From Candidatus Hydrogenedentota bacterium (GTDB lineage Bacteria > Hydrogenedentota > Hydrogenedentia > Hydrogenedentales > SLHB01): a stretch of 36,039 nucleotides of DNA. The stretch spans positions 1-36,039 of the forward strand of contig JARKSN010000093.1 in assembly GCA_029974275.1 (NCBI GenBank), read 5' to 3'. Numbering within the stretch: the first letter of the stretch is position 1; every line of letters begins with the position of its first letter. Shown here one piece after another: positions 15,847-25,886 of this stretch. The translations under genes and the position numbers were made by a program. The notes under the pieces were generated by a model that had not been told where the DNA came from, searched no databases, and worked only from the letters and a program-made list of their open reading frames with translations.

Positions 15847-17202
15847 ATGGAAACAGTTCTAACATCGCTGGAGACCGTCTTGACGAAGGTCAACGGCGTT
15901 GTGTGGGGGCCAGTCATGTTGTGCCTGCTTTTCGGCGCCCACTTGATTTTGACCTATCGGCTACGCTTCATTCAACGCTACATTGGCACGGGCATTCGTC
16001 TTTCCCTGGCGGGGCGGGAAGGCGGACAGGGCGACATCAGTCATTTCGGCGCGCTCACGACGGCCCTGGCGGCGACCATCGGAGCCGGCAATATCATTGG
16101 CGTGGCGACGGCGATTGGGATTGGCGGTCCGGGCGCGGTGTTGTGGATGTGGCTTACGGGCGTTTTCGGGATCGCCACCAAATACGCCGAGGCGCTTCTG
16201 GCGGTCAAATACCGCGTTGTCACGCCCGACGGACGGACCGTCGGCGGGCCCATGTACGTGATCGCGCGCGGACTGAAATGCAAATGGCTTGCGGCGCTGT
16301 TCGCGGCGTTCACGGCAATCGCCGCGTTTGGCATTGGCAACATGTATCAGGCCAATGCCATTGCCTCGCTGGCCACGGAGACGTACGGCATTCCCCCTTG
16401 GGTTTCGGGCTCCCTCATGACGGTCTTGACTGCCTTGGTTATCTTAGGCGGCATCCGGTCGATCGCGCGCGTCTGCGAAATTCTTGTTCCCTTCATGGCG
16501 ATTGCCTATGTGGGCGGATGTCTGATTCTGCTGGCGATGGGGTGGCGAGGAGTTCCCGAAACGATAGGGTTGATCTGTTCCAGCGCGTTTACCGGTCATG
16601 CCGCGGCGGGCGGTTTTGCCGGCGCCGGAGTCATGATTGCGATCCGCTGGGGCATTGCCCGGGGGCTTTTCTCGAACGAATCCGGTCTGGGAAGTGCCCC
16701 CATCGTAGCGGCGGCGGCGCGAACCCGGAATCCTGTCCGCCAGGCATTGGTGTCTTCCACCGGCACTTTTTGGGACACCGTCGTGGTATGCTTACTGACC
16801 GGCATCGTTCTGGTGAACTCCGGCGAATGGCTCACCGGATGCAAGGATGCCGCGTTGACCAAGGCCGCGTTTGGCGATATTCCTCACCTTGGCCCTTTGG
16901 TCCTGAACGTGGGGCTGCTGACGTTCGTGTTTTCGACCATTCTCGGATGGTCCTATTATGGGGAGCGCGGCGCCGAATACCTCTTCGGGCCGCGCATCAT
17001 CTTTCCCTATCGCCTTCTTTGGGTCGCCAGCGTGATGGCGGGGGCGCTGGCGAAGCTTTCCCTGATCATTTCCTTTGCTGATATCGCCAACGCCTTGATG
17101 GCCGCCCCCAACCTCATTTCCCTGCTGCTTCTGAGCGGCGTGGTGGTGAAGGAGACCCAGAAATACCTTTGGAACCAACATCTTGACGATCCCGAAGACT
17201 AG
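15847..17202 (+). CDS. Alanine/glycine:cation symporter (AGCS family)
   Basis: ALAATIGAGNIIGVATAIGIGGPGAVLWMW, GGPMY, ARGLFSNESGLGSAPI, DTVVVC, FSTILGWSYYGE, ALMAAPNL. Confidence 0.93.
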   Translation: METVLTSLETVLTKVNGVVWGPVMLCLLFGAHLILTYRLRFIQRYIGTGIRLSLAGREGGQGDISHFGALTTALAATIGAGNIIGVATAIGIGGPGAVLWMWLTGVFGIATKYAEALLAVKYRVVTPDGRTVGGPMYVIARGLKCKWLAALFAAFTAIAAFGIGNMYQANAIASLATETYGIPPWVSGSLMTVLTALVILGGIRSIARVCEILVPFMAIAYVGGCLILLAMGWRGVPETIGLICSSAFTGHAAAGGFAGAGVMIAIRWGIARGLFSNESGLGSAPIVAAAARTRNPVRQALVSSTGTFWDTVVVCLLTGIVLVNSGEWLTGCKDAALTKAAFGDIPHLGPLVLNVGLLTFVFSTILGWSYYGERGAEYLFGPRIIFPYRLLWVASVMAGALAKLSLIISFADIANALMAAPNLISLLLLSGVVVKETQKYLWNQHLDDPED

Positions 17203-17336
17203 CCGGATTCCCCTTTCTTGACCGGAGCCGGGTTTCACGAAAAACTTGCTTTTTCCCTGCCGGATATGTAATGTTCGGTAAGGTCAAAGGTAATATGGTC
17301 AAGAGCGAGAAAATTATTTAGGCCGGTGATAGGGTG

Positions 17337-17365
17337 TTGACATTTGTACATCTGGATGGTATAGT
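17337..17365 (+). promoter_or_regulatory. Strong sigma70 promoter upstream of the peptide genes
   Basis: TTGACA (17337-42)-N17-TATAGT (17360-65) with TG extension and AT-rich upstream sequence. Confidence 0.75.
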
Positions 17366-17374
17366 ACACCATCC
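17354..17374. promoter_or_regulatory. Operator-like palindrome over the -10/+1 region
   Basis: GGATGGT-atagtac-ACCATCC, perfect 7-bp arms. Confidence 0.45.
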
Positions 17375-17438
17375 GTGGTGCGTTTAGGGTTACAATGGCT
17401 GGTAGTTGTGGGCTGGCGCCCCACGCAAGGAGGCAGCC

Positions 17439-17561
17439 GTGAAGCACGTTCGTAAAATATCGGCACTGCCCAGCGTTGCCGAAGACAACAAGCCCTTTGA
17501 TATTACGTTCATTACGGATATCATGCGGGCCTTCATCACCAAGAAGAGCGCCCAAACATAG
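17439..17561 (+). CDS. Putative RiPP precursor peptide 1 (40 aa): MKHVRKISALPSVAEDNKPFDITFITDIMRAFITKKSAQT
   Basis: AAGGAGG SD (17427-33) before GTG; shares the MKH leader and F..KK motif with the next two ORFs; below the ORF-track length cutoff. Confidence 0.8.
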   Translation: MKHVRKISALPSVAEDNKPFDITFITDIMRAFITKKSAQT

Positions 17562-17700
17562 GCCTCTTGGATAAGCGAGGAACTAGCCGCACGGTTCCAT
17601 GTGGGAACTAGGCGGAAAATGTAGTTCCGGGCCTGTTGCATACGTGAGAGTTATGCGGCGGCTCGAGGGGAAAACGGACAATGAACAAGGAGATTTCGCA

Positions 17701-17841
17701 ATGAAGCACATCAAGCACGTCACCGTGGCCAAGGCTGAGGCAAAGACCCTTCGCAGCGCCTTCGCGAATCTGAAGGAAGACCTGCAGAACGCTCTCGAAG
17801 CGTTCAAGGTGGAGAAGAAGGCCCCGGCGCAGCCCGAGTAA
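17701..17841 (+). CDS. Putative RiPP precursor peptide 2 (46 aa): MKHIKHVTVAKAEAKTLRSAFANLKEDLQNALEAFKVEKKAPAQPE
   Basis: AAGGAG SD (17687-92) before ATG; strongly biased codons (AAG, GCC, TTC, CTG); MKHIK start. Confidence 0.85.
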   Translation: MKHIKHVTVAKAEAKTLRSAFANLKEDLQNALEAFKVEKKAPAQPE

Positions 17842-17863
17842 TCGTACTCGAAGGAAGATCAAC

Positions 17864-17983
17864 GTGAAACACACGCGATTGGTGTCGAAAGTCCGCAAAG
17901 CGGATGCGTTTACTGATTTTTTGAACAGAGCGCAACGCGCTTGGTCGGACTTTGTGTTCGCCAAGAAAAATGCGGGTGGATAA
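17864..17983 (+). CDS. Putative RiPP precursor peptide 3 (39 aa): MKHTRLVSKVRKADAFTDFLNRAQRAWSDFVFAKKNAGG
   Basis: AAGGAAG SD before GTG 17864; MKH leader, A-D junction, FxxxKK motif. Confidence 0.8.
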   Translation: MKHTRLVSKVRKADAFTDFLNRAQRAWSDFVFAKKNAGG

Positions 17984-18004
17984 AAGATCGTAGGGTGTAT
18001 TCAG

Positions 18005-18043
18005 ATACCGGGGCTTCCTTGTGGAGTCCCGGTATTGTTTTGT
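18005..18043 (+). terminator. Terminator/attenuator-like hairpin between the precursor genes and the modification genes
   Basis: ataccggggcttc / ggagtcccggtat 13-bp stem (G-U pairs) followed by tgttttgt. Confidence 0.7.
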
Positions 18044-18124
18044 CTGTCGGCGCCGCGCGTATCCTGAAGCGGCATCATCCGGAAGACGTGGCGTAGCCTG
18101 CCGTAACTTCAAGATTGTTCAAAG

Positions 18125-18661
18125 ATGATACAGGGACTTCACACTTCCATACGAACGGCGGAACTCGACGACCTCGGCATGCTGAGCCAATTTTACGATC
18201 CGGAGCGTCCGCGTTCTCTTTATCTCGATCGACGATGCGAAGTATACTGTCCCACCAAGGACGAATTGCGCGAGATGCTGACGCGCCCGGATGTGCGCGC
18301 TTCGCTCGGATTCTTGGTCGTGGAGGACGCCGAGGGCGTAATCCGGGGTTTTTGCGCTCTGCGAGGCATCACCCAGGAAGCCGCGTTGGCGGATATGTTG
18401 CTGGGTTTTTTGGCCCCCCTCGATTTCGCCACGCCCGTGGCAGAGGAGACGTTCGCGTATCTCAAGCGCCGGGTCTTTACGGAACTGCGTCTGGAAAAGC
18501 TCATGGCGCGCTGCTTGGATTTCGAGAGCGAATATCGGCAATTCCTGATGCAGCAAGGCTTCACGAGCGACGGCGTGCAACGTGAAGTCGTGTATGCGAT
18601 GGGCGCCTACCACGACCTCGAGAGTTTCACGCTCGTTAAACAACCGGAGAGGACAGACTGA
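18125..18661 (+). CDS. RimJ/RimL-type GNAT N-acyltransferase (divergent)
   Basis: IRTAELDD N-terminus; VFTELRLEKLMA..GFTSDGVQREVVYAMGAYHD C-terminal signature. Confidence 0.75.
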   Translation: MIQGLHTSIRTAELDDLGMLSQFYDPERPRSLYLDRRCEVYCPTKDELREMLTRPDVRASLGFLVVEDAEGVIRGFCALRGITQEAALADMLLGFLAPLDFATPVAEETFAYLKRRVFTELRLEKLMARCLDFESEYRQFLMQQGFTSDGVQREVVYAMGAYHDLESFTLVKQPERTD

Positions 18662-18662
18662 C

Positions 18663-19298
18663 ATGGCGCTCAAAACCGGCATGTTCCTGCGCAGGGCCGA
18701 GCGGGATGACATGGATACGGTGGTCACCTGGATGGACGATCCGGATTTTCTGCATTTTTTGTATGGCGATCCCGTCCGATCTCCGAAGCAAATCCGCGAA
18801 CATCTTACGGCCGTTCTCGGTCGTAACGCTCCCAACACCGTGCCGTCTGGAATGTACCTCATCGTGGAATCGTCCGAGCATGGACCGGTCGGTCTGGTGT
18901 CCATTATGAACATAAGCTGGCGCAACCGATCGTGCAGTCTCGACGCCTACATCGGCAACAAGAGCCTGCGATCGGGCATGGTGGCGGGCATTTCCCTATA
19001 CCGCGCCATGGAATTCTGTTTCGACGAACTCAATCTGCACCGCATCACGACTTACATCTATTCTTTCAACAGTCCCTCGTGGAGGCTCATGGAACTGAGC
19101 GGGGCCAAGCGCGAACTTGTGATGCGCCATCATGTGCCGCGCGACGGGAAGCTGTATGACCTCTACGCGTACGGCCTGTTGCGCCGCGAGTTCGAGACTC
19201 TTCGGGAGCGACAGGCCGCTCGTTTCAAGGGGAAGTCGTTGGCGGAGATGATCGCCGCGCAACAAGAGGCCTTGGCCCAAGCGGAGACGGCCCCGTGA
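18663..19298 (+). CDS. RimJ/RimL-type GNAT N-acyltransferase
   Basis: FLRRAERDD, PVGLVSIMNISWRNRSC, FCFDELNLHRI..FNSPSWRLME, RDGKLYDLYAYGLLRREF; GGAGAGG SD. Confidence 0.88.
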   Translation: MALKTGMFLRRAERDDMDTVVTWMDDPDFLHFLYGDPVRSPKQIREHLTAVLGRNAPNTVPSGMYLIVESSEHGPVGLVSIMNISWRNRSCSLDAYIGNKSLRSGMVAGISLYRAMEFCFDELNLHRITTYIYSFNSPSWRLMELSGAKRELVMRHHVPRDGKLYDLYAYGLLRREFETLRERQAARFKGKSLAEMIAAQQEALAQAETAP

Positions 19299-20014
19299 TG
19301 CTCCTGTTGCAGGCGGCATTCTGGGGCATGCTGACGTTCCATCTTATCCACGCGCTGATGACGCACCGTGGAGGGGCGCCGGCGGCGCGCGGACGGTTTT
19401 CCAATTTCGTCCTCGTGTCCCAAACCCCCTTGTTCGTTATCGCATGCTATTTCACGGCATCCCAGGGCCTTTTTTCGCGGCAACTGGTATCGCCGCTGTA
19501 CATTGCCTTGGGGGTTGCCGCGGGACACTTGGTGTTTGGCGCTTCGCTGTTGATTACGCATCGTTCCTGGCGCGATGTCACCGCTTACTTCATCGATCTG
19601 AAGCCGATTTGGACGTTCCTCAAGGACAGTCCCCTGGTTTTCATGCGTTTTACGACGGTCGCGATCGTGGAGGAAATCATCTGGCGTTCCGCCGCCCAGC
19701 CCTTGTTGATTTCCGCGACGGGCCTTCCCCTGGTCGGCATACTTGCCGTTGCGGCGGCGTTTTGCATCGTGCACGAACATATTTTCACGAATCCCATCAT
19801 GGTCACCCTCGAGTTCCTCGGCTTTTCGCTTTTGTTGGGCGTTCTGTTTTATTTCACGCACAGTCTGATCTTGGTCATCGTGATCCATGCGGTGCGCGAC
19901 ATCGAGATCGCCTATCTTGAATATGCGGAGAAAGCGGATGAGTTGGGGGACCCGGAATTGGCTTTGCAGGAGTATGAGAAATCGTTGACCCGCCGGCATC
20001 TGGAGAAAGCATGA
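19295..20014 (+). CDS. CPBP (CAAX/Abi) family intramembrane metalloprotease
   Basis: Multiple TM segments; VEEIIWRS (EExxxR), FCIVH (FxxxH), IHAVRD (HxxxD/N); overlaps both neighbours. Confidence 0.88.
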   Translation: MMLLLQAAFWGMLTFHLIHALMTHRGGAPAARGRFSNFVLVSQTPLFVIACYFTASQGLFSRQLVSPLYIALGVAAGHLVFGASLLITHRSWRDVTAYFIDLKPIWTFLKDSPLVFMRFTTVAIVEEIIWRSAAQPLLISATGLPLVGILAVAAAFCIVHEHIFTNPIMVTLEFLGFSLLLGVLFYFTHSLILVIVIHAVRDIEIAYLEYAEKADELGDPELALQEYEKSLTRRHLEKA

Positions 20015-21027
20015 GCAGCGAATACGCCATTCACGTCGACAGTGTCGATAAGGTGTTTTACACCCGGCACTTCTTCAAACGGAATCCGGACACCAACCAA
20101 TTGAAATGGTATGAGAAACGGCATATTCATGCGGTGGACCATGTCCAGTTCGGCGTGCGGCCCGGTGAAATTTTCGGGTTGCTTGGCCCCAACGGCGCAG
20201 GCAAAACCACGACGGTCAAAATGCTCAGCGGCTTGGTGCGGCCCGACGGGGGCGCGGTGTATATCGACGGGCTCAATGTTGAAACGCGGCGCAAGCAGAT
20301 TCTCAGAAAGATCGGGGTCGTGCTCGAGGGCACGCGCACGGTGATTTGGCCGCTGACGCCGCTCGAGAACTTGGCCTATTTCGGCAATCTGCGCGATGTG
20401 CGCGGCTCCGTCCTCAAGAAACGCTCCCATGAATTGTTGGATTTCATCGGTCTGCGCGAGAAAAAAGACGTGCAGGTGCGCCGATTGTCTCGGGGGCAGA
20501 AGCAAAAACTGGCCATTTGCATCGCGCTGGTCACCGATCCGCACGTCATTTTGCTGGACGAGCCGACCACGGGGTTGGACGTGCAGAGCGGACGCAGCAT
20601 CAAAGAGAAAATCATCGAGATGACCCGCATGCACGGCAAGAGCGTTCTCGTGACCACGCATGACATGCATGTGGCCCAGGAACTGTGCGATCGCATCGGC
20701 ATTATTGATCGGGGCAAGCTGATTGCGTGCAAGACCACCGAGGAGATGCTGACGTTGAGCGGCGACCTCGTCTATGAGGTTCGTGTTGATCGCCCCCTCT
20801 CCCCCACGCTGCTCGCGGATATCGAAGGGGTGATTTCCGCCCGGGAATTGCCCGACGGCGAGGGATTCGGATGCGCGGTGCGGCTTGCGGCTGACGACGA
20901 ATCCCGTTCGCGCGCATTGTATGGCGTCATGGATCGTCTCAAGGCCAACCACTATAGGCTTCTTTCGATCGATCGCCACAAGCAAATGCTGGAAGACGTG
21001 TTCCTTAAACTTACGGGCGGCGCGTAG
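20011..21027 (+). CDS. ABC-2-type exporter ATP-binding protein
   Basis: GPNGAGKTT, LSRGQKQK, LLDEPTTGLD, TTHDM, C-terminal LEDVFLKLTG. Confidence 0.93.
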   Translation: MSSEYAIHVDSVDKVFYTRHFFKRNPDTNQLKWYEKRHIHAVDHVQFGVRPGEIFGLLGPNGAGKTTTVKMLSGLVRPDGGAVYIDGLNVETRRKQILRKIGVVLEGTRTVIWPLTPLENLAYFGNLRDVRGSVLKKRSHELLDFIGLREKKDVQVRRLSRGQKQKLAICIALVTDPHVILLDEPTTGLDVQSGRSIKEKIIEMTRMHGKSVLVTTHDMHVAQELCDRIGIIDRGKLIACKTTEEMLTLSGDLVYEVRVDRPLSPTLLADIEGVISARELPDGEGFGCAVRLAADDESRSRALYGVMDRLKANHYRLLSIDRHKQMLEDVFLKLTGGA

Positions 21028-21052
21028 CAGCGGCAAAGGAGTTTTTGCGCTC

Positions 21053-21982
21053 ATGGGTCTCTTTCTTGTGTTGAAAGCCGAGGTTGTACGAAGCCTCATT
21101 ACGATGCGCCGGTATTGGCTTGCGTCCCTGATCGGTCTCATCATCGGCTATGGCATGCTCATCGCGCTGATTTGGGCCTTTACCACTGGCGGCCAAAGCG
21201 CGGTGGGCGAGAAGATCAAGGAGGGCGTCACCTCGCGGGTCGTGGGCAGCGCGTCCCTGGAGGCGCCTCCCGAATCTTCCGGAACGGACGGGGAGCCTGT
21301 CGCCGTTCCCAAGCCTTCCGAATCCCCCAAGGAACGGGGCACGAAGATCATGAACGGCGTGTTGGGCTTGCTCATCGGGCTTTTCGCGTTTAGCATCATA
21401 GGCATGTTTTCGCAAGGGCTCGCGGGGATGGCGCAAAGCGGCGAGTTGGAGCAATTGTGCATGAGCCCGCATGGGTTGTTGGGCAATTTCCTGGCGCGTT
21501 CTTTTGTGTCGGCGCTCACCAACATCCTGTCTTCGTCGATCCTGGTGGCGCTGGTGTCGATCACGATTCCCGGCGGCGCGCTGCATTTCTCCGCCGGGGC
21601 CATTCCCGCATTGCTGGCGCTCACGTACGTGAACCTGTTGGGATTCGGCTTCATGGTCGGGGGGCTGGTGTTGGTGTTCAAACAGACTGGGCAAGTGGCC
21701 ATGTTGATTCAGATCGCCATGCTGTCGATGTCGATCGCCGCCTCCAAGAGCATGAGTGAATGGCCGTTGCTCATCCGAATTGTCGCCCATATCATGCCCA
21801 TGACGGACGCGACCGTGTGTCTCAAGCTGGTGTTGTTGGATGGCGTGGGCATGCAGGTCTTCTCGTATCCCTCGTTTTTCTTCCTGTTGATCAACTGTGC
21901 GGTGTGGACGAGCATCGGCATCGCTTGCTTCAAGTTCATGGAAAATTGGAGCCGCAACAAAGGAACCTTGGGGACGTATTAG
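21053..21982 (+). CDS. ABC-2-type exporter permease
   Basis: About 6 TM segments, GELEQLCMSP motif; AAGGAG SD before ATG 21053; directly follows the ATPase gene. Confidence 0.85.
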   Translation: MGLFLVLKAEVVRSLITMRRYWLASLIGLIIGYGMLIALIWAFTTGGQSAVGEKIKEGVTSRVVGSASLEAPPESSGTDGEPVAVPKPSESPKERGTKIMNGVLGLLIGLFAFSIIGMFSQGLAGMAQSGELEQLCMSPHGLLGNFLARSFVSALTNILSSSILVALVSITIPGGALHFSAGAIPALLALTYVNLLGFGFMVGGLVLVFKQTGQVAMLIQIAMLSMSIAASKSMSEWPLLIRIVAHIMPMTDATVCLKLVLLDGVGMQVFSYPSFFFLLINCAVWTSIGIACFKFMENWSRNKGTLGTY

Positions 21983-23911
21983 ATGGGCGAGCGCGTCGCG
22001 ATTCACCGCTTCGAACTGGATGGAAGGCGGTTTGCCATCGATCCGGAGACCTGTTTTTGCTTCGAGTGCGATGCGGTGTCGTGGGACGTGTTGGAGCACT
22101 ATCCCCATGAAACCGCGCAACGCATCTATCATCTGCTGGGCGATCGCCACGACCTTAAGGAACTGTCGGAAGTTCTTGGGGAACTTGAATGGTTGCGCGC
22201 CAGTAAATCCATCCTGCCGGCCTATACCCAGGAGGAACTGCAAAAACATTTTGAGATCGATTCCGGTCTCAAGCGAGTGACGGTTCGTCTGCCGCGCGAA
22301 TCAGGCGCGTCTTCTCCTGCGCGGCGCGGCTGGTTTGTCCGCGGCGCGGCTCAGCCTGCCCCAGGCATTGCCGGGAGAGTTCAGGAAGCCGTGACGTTGT
22401 TGCTGGGACGCAGTCAAAAGCAACAAGATCTCCACCTTGAGTTTATTGAGGAGCGTTCTCGTTTCAACCCGGAGGCGCTTGCCGGATTTTGCGTTTCCGC
22501 TATGCAATCCGCCTCGCTGGCAGGCAAGAATCTTACTGTGTCGTTTCGCGTCGACGGCGTCTCGCTTGATGGCATGGGCGGCGTTCTCCACGGACACAAC
22601 GTCTCGGCTGCGATTGAGTTTCGCGAATCCGCCGATGCGGCTCGCAGCTTGGCCGCTTTTGCCAAAGCCCTGGAGTCCCGGAGCCCCGAACGCCTTGCAA
22701 AGGCGATGCAGCCTGGCGGAGAGCACATCTCGGGGCGCCTCATCGTGCAGCCTGGGCATCCGGCTTTTGGCGGCGTGGCGGCGGCATTGCACCAGGCGGG
22801 TTTTACTCTGATAGAACTCGATCTGGACGGTTCTTTCGTCGTCCATCCGGAATTGGCCCCCGATGCGATGCTGCCGGCGATGACGGAAACCGCCGTAGCG
22901 TATGCGCAGACGCTGCTCAAGGGGGCGTATTTTCGTTTAGACCCTATCGCCACGTTGTTTTGGCGCATCTATAGCGGCCTTCCCATGCGGCGGACGGACC
23001 CGATTGGGACCAACGAGCTTGTCATTGACGAGGACGGGGCGGTATATCCTTCACGTCATTTCGTTGGCCTTTCGCCGTTCCGCTGCGGTTCCGTGGCGGA
23101 AGGGCGTCTTGATAATGACCGGATCAAGCCCTATGAGGACGTGGGGGCGTTGACTACGGCTCCGTGCATTGACTGTTGGGCGCGCCATCTGTGCGGCGGC
23201 GGAACCGCGGCGGTGCATCATGCGCTCACGGGCTCCTTTCGCACGCCGCATGAGGCATGGTGCGACGCCCACCGCGCCTGGCTGGCTTCGGCGGTTTCGG
23301 CGTTCAACATGCTGTCGTCGGCGGGCGTAAGTTTCACCAACCTGTATCATCGTTTGGGGAGATTGCCCCGCCCCTCCTTGTTTGCCATGGCGCGCGCCGC
23401 GTTTCGTCCTGGCATCGGTGTGCGTCCTATTGAAGAGAGCGATGCGGACTGGCTCGTGAAGTGGGAGAATTGGAACGAGGCGACCTATTTCACGTATTCC
23501 ATAGGAGGAGCCTTGCTCACTACCAAGTATGACCGCGAAATGGATGCGGCGCATCCTTCTCTGGACGTGCAGGAAATGGTGTTGACGAAAACCGACGGGA
23601 CCGCTTTCGGGTTGGTGCGCTTGCAGCCGGAAATGCTCGACGGCGTCGTGCGTGCGCGGGTGTATCTTCGTCATGAAGCGGACTATGCCGACGAATCCAT
23701 CCGCAAAGGGTTCCGGGGGCTGCTCAAGGAGGCCTTGGGGCATCAGTCGTTGCGTCGGGCGCTGGCGCCGGCAGGCGCGCATGACGCATCCTTGCGATCG
23801 TTCCTCGAGGGATCCGGTTTTACTCGGATCGGCGTTGAACGCGAGGGGCTCTATCTGCACGGTCGCTATCTTGACGTGTGGCATTACGAGGCTGTTTCTG
23901 ACGAATTGTGA
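21983..23911 (+). CDS. Degenerate CteB/ScfB-like RRE-radical SAM-SPASM protein fused to a C-terminal GNAT domain
   Basis: N-terminus IHRFELDGRRFAIDPET..DAVSWDVLEHY (RRE-like); no CxxxCxxC; SPASM-like LVIDEDGAVYPSRHFVG..GSV..CIDCWARHLCGGG..WC; GNAT VRPIEESD..GFTRIGVEREGLYLHGRYLD. Confidence 0.8.
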   Translation: MGERVAIHRFELDGRRFAIDPETCFCFECDAVSWDVLEHYPHETAQRIYHLLGDRHDLKELSEVLGELEWLRASKSILPAYTQEELQKHFEIDSGLKRVTVRLPRESGASSPARRGWFVRGAAQPAPGIAGRVQEAVTLLLGRSQKQQDLHLEFIEERSRFNPEALAGFCVSAMQSASLAGKNLTVSFRVDGVSLDGMGGVLHGHNVSAAIEFRESADAARSLAAFAKALESRSPERLAKAMQPGGEHISGRLIVQPGHPAFGGVAAALHQAGFTLIELDLDGSFVVHPELAPDAMLPAMTETAVAYAQTLLKGAYFRLDPIATLFWRIYSGLPMRRTDPIGTNELVIDEDGAVYPSRHFVGLSPFRCGSVAEGRLDNDRIKPYEDVGALTTAPCIDCWARHLCGGGTAAVHHALTGSFRTPHEAWCDAHRAWLASAVSAFNMLSSAGVSFTNLYHRLGRLPRPSLFAMARAAFRPGIGVRPIEESDADWLVKWENWNEATYFTYSIGGALLTTKYDREMDAAHPSLDVQEMVLTKTDGTAFGLVRLQPEMLDGVVRARVYLRHEADYADESIRKGFRGLLKEALGHQSLRRALAPAGAHDASLRSFLEGSGFTRIGVEREGLYLHGRYLDVWHYEAVSDEL

Positions 23912-23972
23912 TATCGATAAGCTTGGGTGTTCCTGTTCCAAAAGTCCATAACTCGCATAAGGCAGACATTCC

Positions 23973-25886
23973 GTGATTCTATGCGCTTTGTTTTTGGCCG
24001 CTGTTGCACTAATGCTGTTGTTGTCTGATCGCGCCCATGCCGATGGCTCGGAATTCACCGTCGAGCCAGGGCCTGGACCTTTTCCATGGACGCATCTCTC
24101 TCCTCAAAACGACGCCCGCAATTTTCACTTCGCCATCCTGGCCGATCGCAGCGGCGGCATTCGCGATGGCCGCTTTGAACACATTGTCGATCGCCTCAAT
24201 CTTTTGCGCCCCGAGTTCGTTGTGCATATCGGCGACATTATCGAAGGGGCTCCCAACGATATGGCCGAAGTCAACGCGCAATGGGACGAGGCCTTTGAAC
24301 TCATCAAGCCGATCGAGGCGCCCCTCTTCATCGTACCCGGCAATCACGATGTGAATAATCTTGCCCAGGCCAAGGTCTGGGAAGAACGGCTGGGGAGGCT
24401 CTACTATCATTTCCTGTACCAAAATGTCCTATTTCTTGTGCTGCACACCGAGGACCCTCCCGGAAAGCAAATCAGCGCCGATCAAGTCGCCTATGCCGCG
24501 CGCGTGCTTGCCGATCATCCGGATGTTCGGTGGACCTTCGTGTTGCTGCACGTGCCGTTGTGGATGTATTCGCACGAGCATCGGTGGGAAGAGATCGAGG
24601 CCTGTCTTGCGGGGCGCAAGCACACCGTTCTAGCGGGCCATATGCACGAATACATCAAATACGTTCGTAACAATGCGAGCCACATCGTTCTTGCGGCGAG
24701 CGGGGCGTGGACTTTTGGACGTGGCCCGGAATACGGCGAGTTCGATCACATTACGTGGATTGCGATGGACGACAATGGCCCGCGCATCACGAACTTGCTG
24801 GTTGACGGCATCCGCAATGAAAACGTCAACACCATCGAGATGCGCAAGGCGCTCATGCCTGTGCGCCGGGGCGAGATCGTCACCTCGACGGGCGCGTGGT
24901 GTTCGGGCGATCTTTTCACGGGCGGCGCCACCCGGCTGCGTTTGTGGAACCCGCTTGATCGCCCCATGGATTTTCAACTGCTTTTGCACCCTTCGCGCCA
25001 AATGGAGCCCAGCGTCACGGCCATTGAGCGCACGCTTGCCCCGCGCGAGGATCATTACGTTGAAGTCCGCCTGCACGCCCCCTCTCCCCTTTCGTTTCGC
25101 GAGATAGACCCGCTTCGTGCGACGTGGCGCATCGCTTGTGATTTTCCGGGCCGTGAGCGCGTGCACATGCATGGCGCGCATCGTATCGTCGTCGATGGCG
25201 TCCATGTCTGTCCGCGCCGGACGTTTGATGGAGCCGTGGATGCGCAGCTTGATAAATGGGGCGAGTTGCCGTGGCGTTGTCTCGAACCCGGGCAAATCTC
25301 GCAGTGTCCTGACCAGTGGGCCGGGCCCGCGGACTGTTCGTTCCGTTTTGCCACTGCCTACGACGAGGATTACGTGTATGTCGCGGTGCGCGTGACCGAT
25401 GACGTTCCCATGTTTCGGGGACGCAAAGACCCTTGGCGCAAGGACGCCGTCATCATTCTTCTCGACGCCCGGTCGGAATCGGAGCGAACGACATTGGACC
25501 ACCGTTGGGTGAACACGGAGATGGAGTGGGAACTGGCGCGGATGTACGGACGCTACCCCGGTCCAGGGGCGTTCCGCGACTATCTGTTCTTGGGTGTGTC
25601 GTTGGGCGCGACGCCTGAGGAATGCACGATCTACGAAGAGCATTTGCAGCCTGCGGGACTGCGCTATGCCTCTCGTCTGGAACCGGGCGGCTATGCCGTC
25701 GAGGTGGCGGTTCCTGCCGCATACCTCAACGCCCGGCAGAATTATTCCTGGAACGCCTTTCGTTTGAACATCAGCGTTTTCGACTGCGACGGCAATTACG
25801 CAGGTCCTCACAAGGCCCTGTGGTGGCGACCTTCCTGGAGCAGCGCCGAGAGCGTTCCGAACCAAGGACTTTTCCGGAAAGGGTGA
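23973..25886 (+). CDS. Secreted calcineurin-like metallophosphoesterase with C-terminal CBM9/DOMON-like domain
   Basis: Signal peptide ..AHA; ILADRSGG, HIGDIIEG, PGNHD, LLHVP, AGHMH; C-terminal VDAQLDKW..YDEDYVYVAVRVTDD..DAVIILLD..YAVEVAVP. Confidence 0.8.
   Translation: MILCALFLAAVALMLLLSDRAHADGSEFTVEPGPGPFPWTHLSPQNDARNFHFAILADRSGGIRDGRFEHIVDRLNLLRPEFVVHIGDIIEGAPNDMAEVNAQWDEAFELIKPIEAPLFIVPGNHDVNNLAQAKVWEERLGRLYYHFLYQNVLFLVLHTEDPPGKQISADQVAYAARVLADHPDVRWTFVLLHVPLWMYSHEHRWEEIEACLAGRKHTVLAGHMHEYIKYVRNNASHIVLAASGAWTFGRGPEYGEFDHITWIAMDDNGPRITNLLVDGIRNENVNTIEMRKALMPVRRGEIVTSTGAWCSGDLFTGGATRLRLWNPLDRPMDFQLLLHPSRQMEPSVTAIERTLAPREDHYVEVRLHAPSPLSFREIDPLRATWRIACDFPGRERVHMHGAHRIVVDGVHVCPRRTFDGAVDAQLDKWGELPWRCLEPGQISQCPDQWAGPADCSFRFATAYDEDYVYVAVRVTDDVPMFRGRKDPWRKDAVIILLDARSESERTTLDHRWVNTEMEWELARMYGRYPGPGAFRDYLFLGVSLGATPEECTIYEEHLQPAGLRYASRLEPGGYAVEVAVPAAYLNARQNYSWNAFRLNISVFDCDGNYAGPHKALWWRPSWSSAESVPNQGLFRKG

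Follow-up and report, generated by a model that had tools for sequence, protein, structure and literature searches.

The window analysed here is a stretch of 36,039 nt from a Candidatus Hydrogenedentota genome (assembly GCA_029974275.1, contig JARKSN010000093.1). At positions 17337 to 23911 it carries an operon in which three small open reading frames (sORFs) precede six tightly coupled genes, the last of which encodes a 642-aa fusion protein. We propose, with moderate confidence, that this operon encodes a pathway, derived from the SCIFF/ranthipeptide one, in which peptides are modified under the guidance of a leader and then exported. As such it is a candidate for a new class of peptides that are made by the ribosome and modified after translation (RiPPs), with known parts arranged around a pseudo-enzyme scaffold. 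The fusion protein is the centre of the argument: its N-terminal RiPP recognition element (RRE) was modelled to bind the conserved N-terminus of the sORF peptides, and its gene travels with the others across the phylum. A first-pass annotation of the sequence had listed a promoter, three sORFs, a hairpin and six coupled genes, and every one of these elements was found in place:

17337..17365, + strand: sigma-70-type promoter TTGACA-17-TATAGT, 11 of 12 consensus matches, extended -10 TG
17439..17561, + strand: sORF1, 40 aa, GTG start, Shine-Dalgarno (SD) sequence AAGGAGG, begins MKHVRKISALPSVA, hydrophobic-core type
17701..17841, + strand: sORF2, 46 aa, ATG start, SD AAGGAG, begins MKHIKHVTVAKAEA
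17864..17983, + strand: sORF3, the 'type A' peptide, 39 aa, GTG start, preceded by an SD sequence
18004..18046, + strand: terminator-like hairpin (18004-18036, 14 pairs) and T-rich tail, separating the sORFs from the enzyme genes
18125..18661, + strand: GNAT1, 178 aa, divergent Acetyltransf_4/3 member
18663..19298, + strand: GNAT2, 211 aa, Acetyltransf_3 (RimJ/RimL/PseH-like), 1-nt gap after GNAT1
19295..20014, + strand: CPBP (Rce1-like) glutamic-type intramembrane protease, PF02517, overlaps GNAT2 by 4 nt
20011..21027, + strand: ABC transporter ATPase, DrrA-like, ABC_tran, overlaps the CPBP gene by 4 nt
21053..21982, + strand: ABC-2-type permease, 25-nt gap after the ATPase gene
21983..23911, + strand: 642-aa fusion protein, no gap after the permease gene
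21983..22267, + strand: fusion residues 1-95, peptide-binding domain of the RRE winged-helix type, strand 3 with an invariant CxCxxC
22268..23002, + strand: fusion residues 96-340, degenerate radical-SAM barrel without CxxxCxxC, aligned to the CteB core
23003..23362, + strand: fusion residues 341-460, reduced SPASM domain that keeps CxxCx5C and one downstream Cys (C395, C398, C404, C427)
23405..23911, + strand: fusion residues 475-642, C-terminal GNAT domain (RimL/YdaF/SpeG-like), from profile and Foldseek matches

The start codons of GNAT2 and of the ABC-2 permease were checked.

The last gene had been read at first pass as a SCIFF/ranthipeptide-type maturase that lacks the radical-SAM cluster motif and is fused to a GNAT, and profile, fold and family searches all bore this out. 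A profile of 32 orthologues (alignment A1) aligned over query residues 4-432 with CteB, the SCIFF maturase (5wgg_A, E 4.3e-40). The AlphaFold (AF2) model of the fusion, with a predicted local distance difference test score (pLDDT) of 84.6 and a predicted template modelling score (pTM) of 0.70, had 5wgg_A as its best Foldseek match (E 2.9e-17, target TM 0.69). Among NCBIfam families, SPASM (TIGR04085) scored 35.3 bits against a cut-off of 27, and ScfB-type families matched at E 1e-15 to 3e-15, far under their cut-offs (TIGR03974, 56.2 bits against 425; NF040492, 57.6 bits against 855). Pfam gave nothing useful on the whole 642-aa protein or on its pieces, and its Radical_SAM family did not match the fusion even at E<=10. 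The CxxxCxxC motif was missing from the window protein and from four divergent orthologues, the CNLRCKYC stretch of CteB aligned to a Cys-free, low-confidence loop, and no Cys was conserved within residues 30-394 of A1. At the N-terminus, residues 1-95 formed three strands followed by three helices in the model and aligned to the N-terminus of CteB. In the C-terminal part, the A1 profile matched RimL (1s7k/1z9u) at E ~5e-6, with RimL, YdaF and RimJ covering residues 521-635. Foldseek placed SpeG (E 4.5e-9) and the lasso-peptide acetyltransferase 9iy3 (E 6e-8) on the same domain, and a precomputed PF13420 annotation was present on some fusion orthologues.

The sole invariant Cys residues in A1 were C24, C26, C29, C395, C398, C404 and C427. 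The first three lie within ETCFCFECD on RRE strand 3, and H8 is invariant as well; the other four lie within CxxCWARxLCGGG...WC. In the SPASM domain, the fourth motif Cys and the upstream Cys were lost, and CX2CX5C with one downstream Cys was kept throughout. From the anSME structure, we take the first three SPASM-motif Cys and the downstream Cys to ligate auxiliary cluster II, and the lost fourth and upstream Cys presumably belong to auxiliary cluster I. Because CxxxCxxC is gone and only C395, C398, C404 and C427 of the SPASM Cys remain, the fusion reads as a maturase whose radical function is dead but which is probably still able to bind one Fe-S cluster. The label 'dead' therefore suits the lost radical motif, but not the SPASM domain as a whole, in which the four invariant Cys of one auxiliary cluster site persist. 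The most divergent member (L075, G001:C9, 26% identity, deep-branching family f14) keeps a CX2CX5CX3C SPASM motif and has Ser, Val and Leu in place of the N-terminal Cys triad, and L076 and L077 have two of its three Cys. Since the deep-branching L075 is without the triad, the triad appears to be a later acquisition, and the alignment of such deep-branching members thus gives the order in which Cys sites were lost and gained.

The full window peptides are MKHVRKISALPSVAEDNKPFDITFITDIMRAFITKKSAQT (sORF1), MKHIKHVTVAKAEAKTLRSAFANLKEDLQNALEAFKVEKKAPAQPE (sORF2) and MKHTRLVSKVRKADAFTDFLNRAQRAWSDFVFAKKNAGG (sORF3). When related loci were collected by scanning one genome per species, which yielded 60 loci, one to five SD-preceded sORFs beginning with MKH were found in the 1.8 kb upstream of GNAT1 in 35 of the 37 loci that bear this gene. 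The 98 distinct peptides share the leader consensus M-K-H-[ILV]-[RK]-x-[ILVM]-[ST]-[RK]-x-P-x-x-A. Positions 2-3 of this motif were pre-selected by the sORF search and positions 4-8 loosely filtered, and at the positions free of selection Pro11 was present in 52 and Ala14 in 72 of the 98 peptides. The MKH start pattern with an SD sequence gave 97 matches in the 67,710 bases upstream of GNAT1 in the 37 related loci, against one match elsewhere on the + strand and none on the - strand of 755,631 bases. Enrichment of MKH sORFs upstream of GNAT1 is thus far above chance. Behind the leader lies a helical core that varies between peptides and is hydrophobic or amphipathic; a motif with Lys (AKE, KKN, SKN or the like) follows, and the peptides end in a short polar tail. 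Median charge is +3 for the cationic leaders and -1 for the slightly anionic cores, and 97 of the 98 peptides carry a Lys beyond residue 14.

One peptide type stands out. The type A peptide (..RKADAFTDFLN..AWSDFVFAKKN..) was always the last sORF before GNAT1 and was found by tblastn in most loci, and M1, K2, H3, A13, W27 and K34 were invariant among its 23 aligned sequences (alignment A2). A database search with it returned 160 proteins at E<=1 among 276 candidates; 120 relatives were listed, every one at E<=1.7e-14, and those carrying names were all 'hypothetical protein' of Hydrogenedentes. The peptides had been described at first pass as Cys-free and amphipathic, and both terms turned out to apply in part. 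None of the three window peptides contains Cys; because 21 of the 98 family peptides do, Cys-free is a property of the window peptides and not of the family. Amphipathicity was strong for sORF3 only (z 3.7 against shuffles, muH 0.67), moderate for sORF2 (z 1.5) and lacking in sORF1 (z -0.2); family-wide, z exceeded 2 in 20 of 98 peptides. The three sORFs had no Pfam match and no NCBIfam match at E<=1. A two-Cys subtype (..ICTxITSDYQALLCF.., Cys ~13-14 residues apart) was also seen, at L036 (e.g. L036:3141-3308), L037, L040, L042, L048, L050, L054, L076 and L077. These Cys could form a disulfide or be a relic of SCIFF ancestry, the maturase of the system being unable to make thioethers.

For the contact between leader and RRE, the 642-aa protein (from alignment A1) was modelled together with the type A peptide (from alignment A2) in three runs, with three controls. 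The complex scored 0.83 (runs 0.82-0.84) and the best control 0.00; the score mark used was reached by 116 of 157 solved complexes and by 2 of 215 mismatched pairs, and holds roughly for this complex, which was built from author-made alignments. The runs agreed in at least 63% of contacts. Peptide residues 1-12 lay against fusion residues 17-18, 23-30 (strand 3, where the Cys triad lies), 32-33 and 60-76 (helix 3), and also touched residues 329-332 and 438-446. According to excerpts of PMC8326336, this groove is where the CteA leader sits in CteB. The model thus supports binding of the leader in the canonical RRE groove, and with it the earlier suggestion of a ranthipeptide-derived recognition module; what it displays is likeness to CteB-CteA and not binding by this copy. 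With the modelled contact taken into account, the locus has the genetic part of the general RiPP definition: gene-encoded precursors, a conserved leader, a variable core (98 distinct peptides) and an adjoining RRE-bearing protein.

Gene order was examined in the 43 loci with at least 4.5 kb of DNA upstream of the fusion match. All six genes occurred in the same order in 37 of them, so the association of fusion homologues with GNATs, CPBP, ABC genes and MKH sORFs, on which the first-pass annotation had asked for a synteny check, proved to be conserved. Only GNAT1 was missing from the operon in L026, L039, L041 and L044, and the position of the ABC-2 permease was conserved in 60 loci. In a species-level genome set, the fusion was present at E<=1e-20 in 123 of 135 Hydrogenedentota genomes, in 83 of the 86 high-quality genomes and in 60 of 66 genera. 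It was mostly found as one match per genome, with identity dropping with taxonomic distance; the genomes without it clustered in one family, where 5 of 14 have it, and in one deep lineage. Members at 26-28% identity still kept the whole operon and MKH sORFs. Judged from these sequences, it looks like a near-core operon that was vertically inherited with few losses.

Five genomes with no sORFs near the operon were searched with the type A profile, and four of them held type A elsewhere (E<=3e-18). In three genomes whose operon was without sORFs and GNAT1, the sORFs lay directly upstream of GNAT1 at a second locus. The fifth genome gave type A only at E 0.19, and a pattern scan revealed one MKH-type ORF. 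In five genomes without the fusion, no type A match was better than E 0.34. Because split-locus and fusion-less genomes show this joint presence and absence, peptides and enzymes appear to have been gained, moved and lost together, and among the enzymes GNAT1 is, by this comparison, the one most tightly tied to the peptides.

Excerpts of PMC8326336 describe SCIFF as spread over Clostridia as a lineage. Lineage-wide spread of this kind argues against a simple antibiotic role, and near-universal single-copy spread fits a conserved physiological role better than a sporadic natural-product cluster. By analogy with SCIFF in Clostridia, this suggests that the present system serves such a role and is not a sporadic antibiotic.

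The same distribution also speaks for the alternative that survives best, which we nonetheless consider unlikely: that the peptides are cell-resident small membrane or regulatory proteins, acetylated to tune envelope or transport functions, while the ABC-2 transporter moves another substrate. A near-universal, mostly single-copy and apparently vertical system would suit such proteins. Several cores, moreover, have ~20 hydrophobic residues with flanking Lys, the length of a transmembrane segment, and neither a bacteriocin-type double-glycine leader nor a C39 peptidase was found in Pfam and NCBIfam searches. However, the architecture of precursor, RRE, protease and ABC transporter, with one to five peptides per locus, resembles RiPP and bacteriocin loci, and the transporter genes are so tightly coupled in translation with those for maturation that a shared substrate is suggested.

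For leader-guided modification, the candidate enzymes are the GNATs, recognisable by sequence or fold in all three units (GNAT1, GNAT2 and the fusion C-terminus). GNAT1 is divergent by Pfam, although 26 of 27 orthologues matched Acetyltransf_4, and its AF2 model (pLDDT 92) had 1nsl as its best Foldseek match (E 8e-11, TM 0.76) and also matched YdaF, SpeG, ArsN and RimI-type GNATs. GNAT2 scored 54.7 bits for Acetyltransf_3 against a cut-off of 25.4, with SpeG-like GNATs (E ~1e-8) and aminoglycoside acetyltransferases among its PDB sequence matches. GNAT1 also gave a weak alignment with the GNAT domain that ends the fusion, at 26-37% identity where a locus has no separate GNAT1; the GNATs are therefore probably paralogous to one another. 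Their nearest structures were of acetyl type and none resembled a lipid-type GNAT, and the operon holds no acyl-carrier or fatty-acid genes. Since the GNATs are RimL/YdaF/SpeG-like and such genes are missing from the operon, a short acyl group such as acetyl seems more likely than a fatty acyl group. In some lineages a further free-standing GNAT gene, paralogous to GNAT2, lies between those for GNAT1 and GNAT2 (L002:3942-4652, L012:4215-4793, L007, L010, L015, L028, L030, L057), which brings the operon to four GNAT domains.

CPBP proteases are characterised by the catalytic motifs EExxxR, FxxxH and HxxxN/D. The window protein matched PF02517 with 41.2 bits (cut-off 22.4) and carries EExxxR, FxxxH and HxxxD; EExxxR, FxxxH and Hxxx[DN] were present in 48 of 48 orthologue matches covering them, and the protein is thus probably an active protease. 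The ABC ATPase scored 102.5 bits for ABC_tran and matched TIGR01188 at E 9e-74, below that family's own cut-off. The permease fell slightly under the cut-offs of both ABC2_membrane_3 (28.5 bits, cut-off 31.6) and ABC2_membrane (25.9 bits, cut-off 26.9).

This DNA occurs in sequencing runs of metagenomes from wastewater, activated sludge, digesters and biofilms. Four metatranscriptome runs from three studies held contigs with 100% identity to the window, which together covered 17313-17997, that is, the promoter-proximal region and all three sORFs. They began at 17313-17359, and in all four runs they ended at 17992-17997, just before the hairpin. No contig of these runs covered the flanks 16900-17312 and 18000-24100 except for a 31-nt piece at 20180-20210 whose own ends are unlike. 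Such selective cover argues against DNA carry-over and hints at a discrete, abundant sORF transcript, and the common contig ends are a weak hint of an RNA 3' end at 17992-17997, bearing in mind that contigs can neither define RNA ends nor rank expression nor show absence. In two studies the RNA contigs broke between sORF1 and sORF2, at 17590/17592 (X12) and 17569/17600 (X13), the X13 contig with an adapter-like loose end at 17600; the break at 17590-17600 may be an internal start or a processing site.

Directly 3' of the 18004-18036 hairpin lies GTTTTGTCTG, and the element is likely a leaky terminator. Of 34 related loci, 28 had a comparable strong hairpin with a T-rich tail no more than 150 nt from the last sORF; among mononucleotide shuffles, 3 of 34 did. 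Its placement fits the common order of precursor genes, leaky terminator and enzyme genes. A second promoter-like site, TTGATA-16-TATCAT (10 of 12 matches), was noted inside sORF1 at 17497-17524.

The presence of the sORF array in the RNA contigs also bears on a second alternative, slightly less likely than that of cell-resident proteins. Here the sORFs would be unmodified membrane-active peptides, similar to class II bacteriocins or phenol-soluble modulins, and the rest of the operon would provide self-protection and export: CPBP would be an Abi-type immunity protein, the ABC-2 pump would confer immunity or export, and the GNATs would detoxify by acetylation. Helical cores that are hydrophobic or amphipathic would be in keeping with this, as would the fact that the array is the only operon part in RNA contigs. 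In Firmicutes, CPBP/Abi proteins and ABC-2 pumps have immunity roles, and phenol-soluble modulins are exported by an ABC transporter. However, a scheme of immunity alone leaves no role for a conserved motif of 12-14 residues modelled on the RRE, nor for a phylum-wide fusion of RRE, scaffold and GNAT; the CPBP catalytic motifs, moreover, are complete in 48 of 48 orthologues, and GNAT1 moves together with the sORFs. That the sORFs are instead cis-acting regulatory leader peptides, controlling the enzyme operon by attenuation and not serving as substrates, is already disfavoured and very improbable: they do sit between a promoter and a terminator-like hairpin upstream of the operon, but their amino-acid sequences are conserved phylum-wide, they have their own SD sites and two to five copies, they lie at separate loci in some genomes and they were modelled on the RRE.

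For the leader-guided modification and export system that we favour, we infer acyl transfer, with its site and donor, cleavage, export and a biological role as follows. Transcription from the promoter would yield a short RNA, in abundance, with two to five precursor genes, and fewer transcripts would pass the leaky terminator into the enzyme genes. The leader of ~12-14 cationic residues, MKH[ILV][RK]x[ILVM][ST][RK]xPxxA, would dock as a strand on the RRE of the fusion, which, having lost its radical chemistry, would serve as a scaffold and offer the helical core to the GNAT at its own C-terminus, and probably to GNAT1 and GNAT2 as well. The GNATs would move a short acyl group, most likely acetyl from acetyl-CoA, onto core amines; as the best candidate for the site, our guess is the Lys that nearly all peptides carry towards the C-terminus. 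CPBP would then remove the leader (or trim the tail), with cleavage near the conserved Ala13/14, and the ABC-2 transporter would export the product.

Besides the rough calibration of the complex score and the limits of assembled RNA contigs, several points weigh against this proposal. The peptide partner in the complex had a pLDDT of 49-53, so that its own fold is uncertain, and because the complex of CteB with the CteA leader has been solved (5WGG), the complex score may in part reflect the predictor's memory of that structure. GNAT1 itself matched Acetyltransf_4 at E 3.5e-4, under the cut-off. The usual GNAT pyrophosphate loop reads Q/R-x-x-G-x-G/A; GNAT1 has [ST]-P-x-A at this position in its alignment, and since the usual Gly is missing its activity is uncertain: GNAT1 may be inactive or use another donor. 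In L055 and L056, GNAT1 is present with no MKH sORF within 1.8 kb. The L027 operon is without GNAT1, GNAT2 and CPBP, and GNAT2 was not found in that genome at E<=1e-10; in L046 only the permease and the fusion are left in the operon, and GNAT2 lies elsewhere in the genome (E 2.7e-82). Near-universal single-copy presence is atypical for natural-product clusters. Finally, CPBP proteins and ABC-2 pumps also act as bacteriocin immunity factors, so cleavage and export are not the sole reading of these genes.

Among known systems, the closest is SCIFF/ranthipeptide biosynthesis (CteA-CteB, Tte1186a-Tte1186; TIGR03973 and TIGR03974; 5WGG), in which the maturase CteB is homologous to the fusion over RRE, barrel and SPASM domain and, as excerpts of PMC8326336 have it, receives the CteA leader in the same RRE groove as the modelled one. 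Unlike the SCIFF maturase, the fusion has no CxxxCxxC, only one of its two SPASM clusters can be ligated, and a GNAT is fused at the C-terminus; compared with a SCIFF operon, there are two or three extra GNATs, a CPBP protease and an ABC-2 pump. The SCIFF precursor family TIGR03973 (six-Cys core, ~45 residues) reached at best 11.9 bits in the whole genome against a cut-off of 50, and PDB searches with sORF2 or the type A profile did not retrieve the CteA chain. SCIFF precursors presumably start with a similar motif; homology to the MKH leader was not confirmed, and the resemblance is not used as evidence. By sequence, the system thus fails every test that defines SCIFF membership (cut-offs, radical-SAM motif, full SPASM, six-Cys precursor) despite its descent.

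The sporulation killing factor operon of Bacillus subtilis, skfA-H, combines a precursor, an RRE-bearing radical-SAM-family protein, the membrane protease SkfC and the ABC export/resistance pair SkfE/F in one operon (PMC8172795, in excerpt). In its operon logic it resembles the present locus: both join an RRE-bearing member of the radical-SAM family with a membrane protease and two ABC proteins. SkfC we take to be of the CAAX/CPBP type. SkfB, however, is an active sactisynthase on Cys, whereas here the radical site is gone, the window peptides are without Cys and the GNATs are the sole candidate modifying enzymes. For such modification there is precedent in the selidamides (Lys/Orn fatty acylation by KspN/PhaN) and others, in which, according to excerpts of PMC8784127 and PMC13647313, GNATs acylate amines of leader-bearing ribosomal peptides at Lys/Orn near the core termini. 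The presumed GNAT chemistry is alike, and the lasso-peptide acetyltransferase 9iy3 was among the structural matches of the C-terminal GNAT. Selidamide clusters also encode lanthionine synthetases and arginases, and the precursors bear long leaders of the NHLP or Nif11 type (PMC8784127, in excerpt). In contrast, the present leader is a novel 12-14-mer, and the GNATs are RimL/YdaF/SpeG-like (Acetyltransf_3/4), one of them fused to a dead maturase. No Pfam or NCBIfam match to an NHLP/Nif11-type leader was seen in the sORFs, whose leader spans only ~14 residues.

The first-pass annotation had not recognised the gene combination as a described class. No curated Pfam or NCBIfam family covers the peptides or the fusion, and full-text literature searches, whose scope did not extend to subscription journals and supplements, found no description of the system. 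An Atlas search returned the family's own two clusters and, at rank 3 with similarity 0.84, a Bacillota cluster of ~465 aa with Radical_SAM in 100%, Fer4_12 in 86% and Acetyltransf_1 in 71% of members, which may be an active radical-SAM/GNAT fusion. A database search with the fusion gave 269 relatives at E<=0.001 among 8000 candidates scored. Those listed, the best 120 of the 269, were 613-674 aa long and 48-56% identical over almost their full length, and the organisms named among them were Candidatus Hydrogenedentes/-ota, except one record labelled Bathyarchaeia. Complete Hydrogenedentota-type operons also occurred under Nitrospiraceae, Nitrospirales or Bathyarchaeia titles (L001, L004, L009, L014, L018, L024, L038, L041, L044, L054); these labels of metagenome-assembled genomes are probably wrong or from another classification.

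Outside the operon, a gene for a calcineurin-like phosphoesterase (Metallophos) with a CBM9 domain and a hydrophobic N-terminus (23973-25886, + strand) starts 61 nt past the operon with no terminator-like site between. As neither this gene nor the upstream alanine symporter was syntenic in any of the 60 loci, both were excluded from the system. The whole source genome (4.38 Mb) holds 13 matches to the MKH pattern with an SD sequence, three of them in the operon, and ~6 of the 10 others continue xPxxA-like. Orphan ORFs of the form MKH..[ST]..P..A lie on C268 (111546-111953, - strand), C11 (16391-16567), C24 (12604-12741), C204 and C224, those on C268 being a tandem pair with Trp/Gly-rich cores. 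No maturase-like genes were among the neighbours of these ORFs, and the C268 peptide had one weak match (E 0.0027) in 40 family genomes and was not conserved in 39 of the 40. As further precursors, the orphan ORFs were indistinguishable from chance, because the control rate (1 per ~1.4 Mb scanned) predicts ~6 chance matches.

A wider reading, possible but doubtful in our view, is that of a core-genome 'housekeeping' system. A SCIFF-type maturase would have lost its radical chemistry before the phylum radiated and survived as a leader-docking scaffold with one Fe-S site, and in most lineages a Cys3(His) site would later have arisen on the strand that binds the leader. The scaffold would feed diversifying helical peptides and the invariant type A peptide to three or four paralogous acetyltransferases, and the products would be lineage-defining envelope, signalling or competition factors rather than an accessory antibiotic. 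This would make it a RiPP class defined, as far as enzyme chemistry goes, solely by GNAT acyl transfer under the direction of a pseudo-enzyme.

If our proposal is true, the fusion would be a clear case of a radical-SAM RiPP maturase that is dead in catalysis and was retained as a scaffold for recognition, by which enzymes of another class are retargeted. Kept over more than a phylum's history, such a scaffold would show that RiPP pathways can swap their chemistry and keep leader recognition. The short leader and the self-contained RRE-GNAT module could serve directed peptide acylation. For the uncultured Hydrogenedentota, common in wastewater and digesters, the operon would add a conserved, expressed and experimentally tractable peptide system, and its lineage-wide conservation, as with SCIFF, raises the question of what 'core' ribosomal peptides do.

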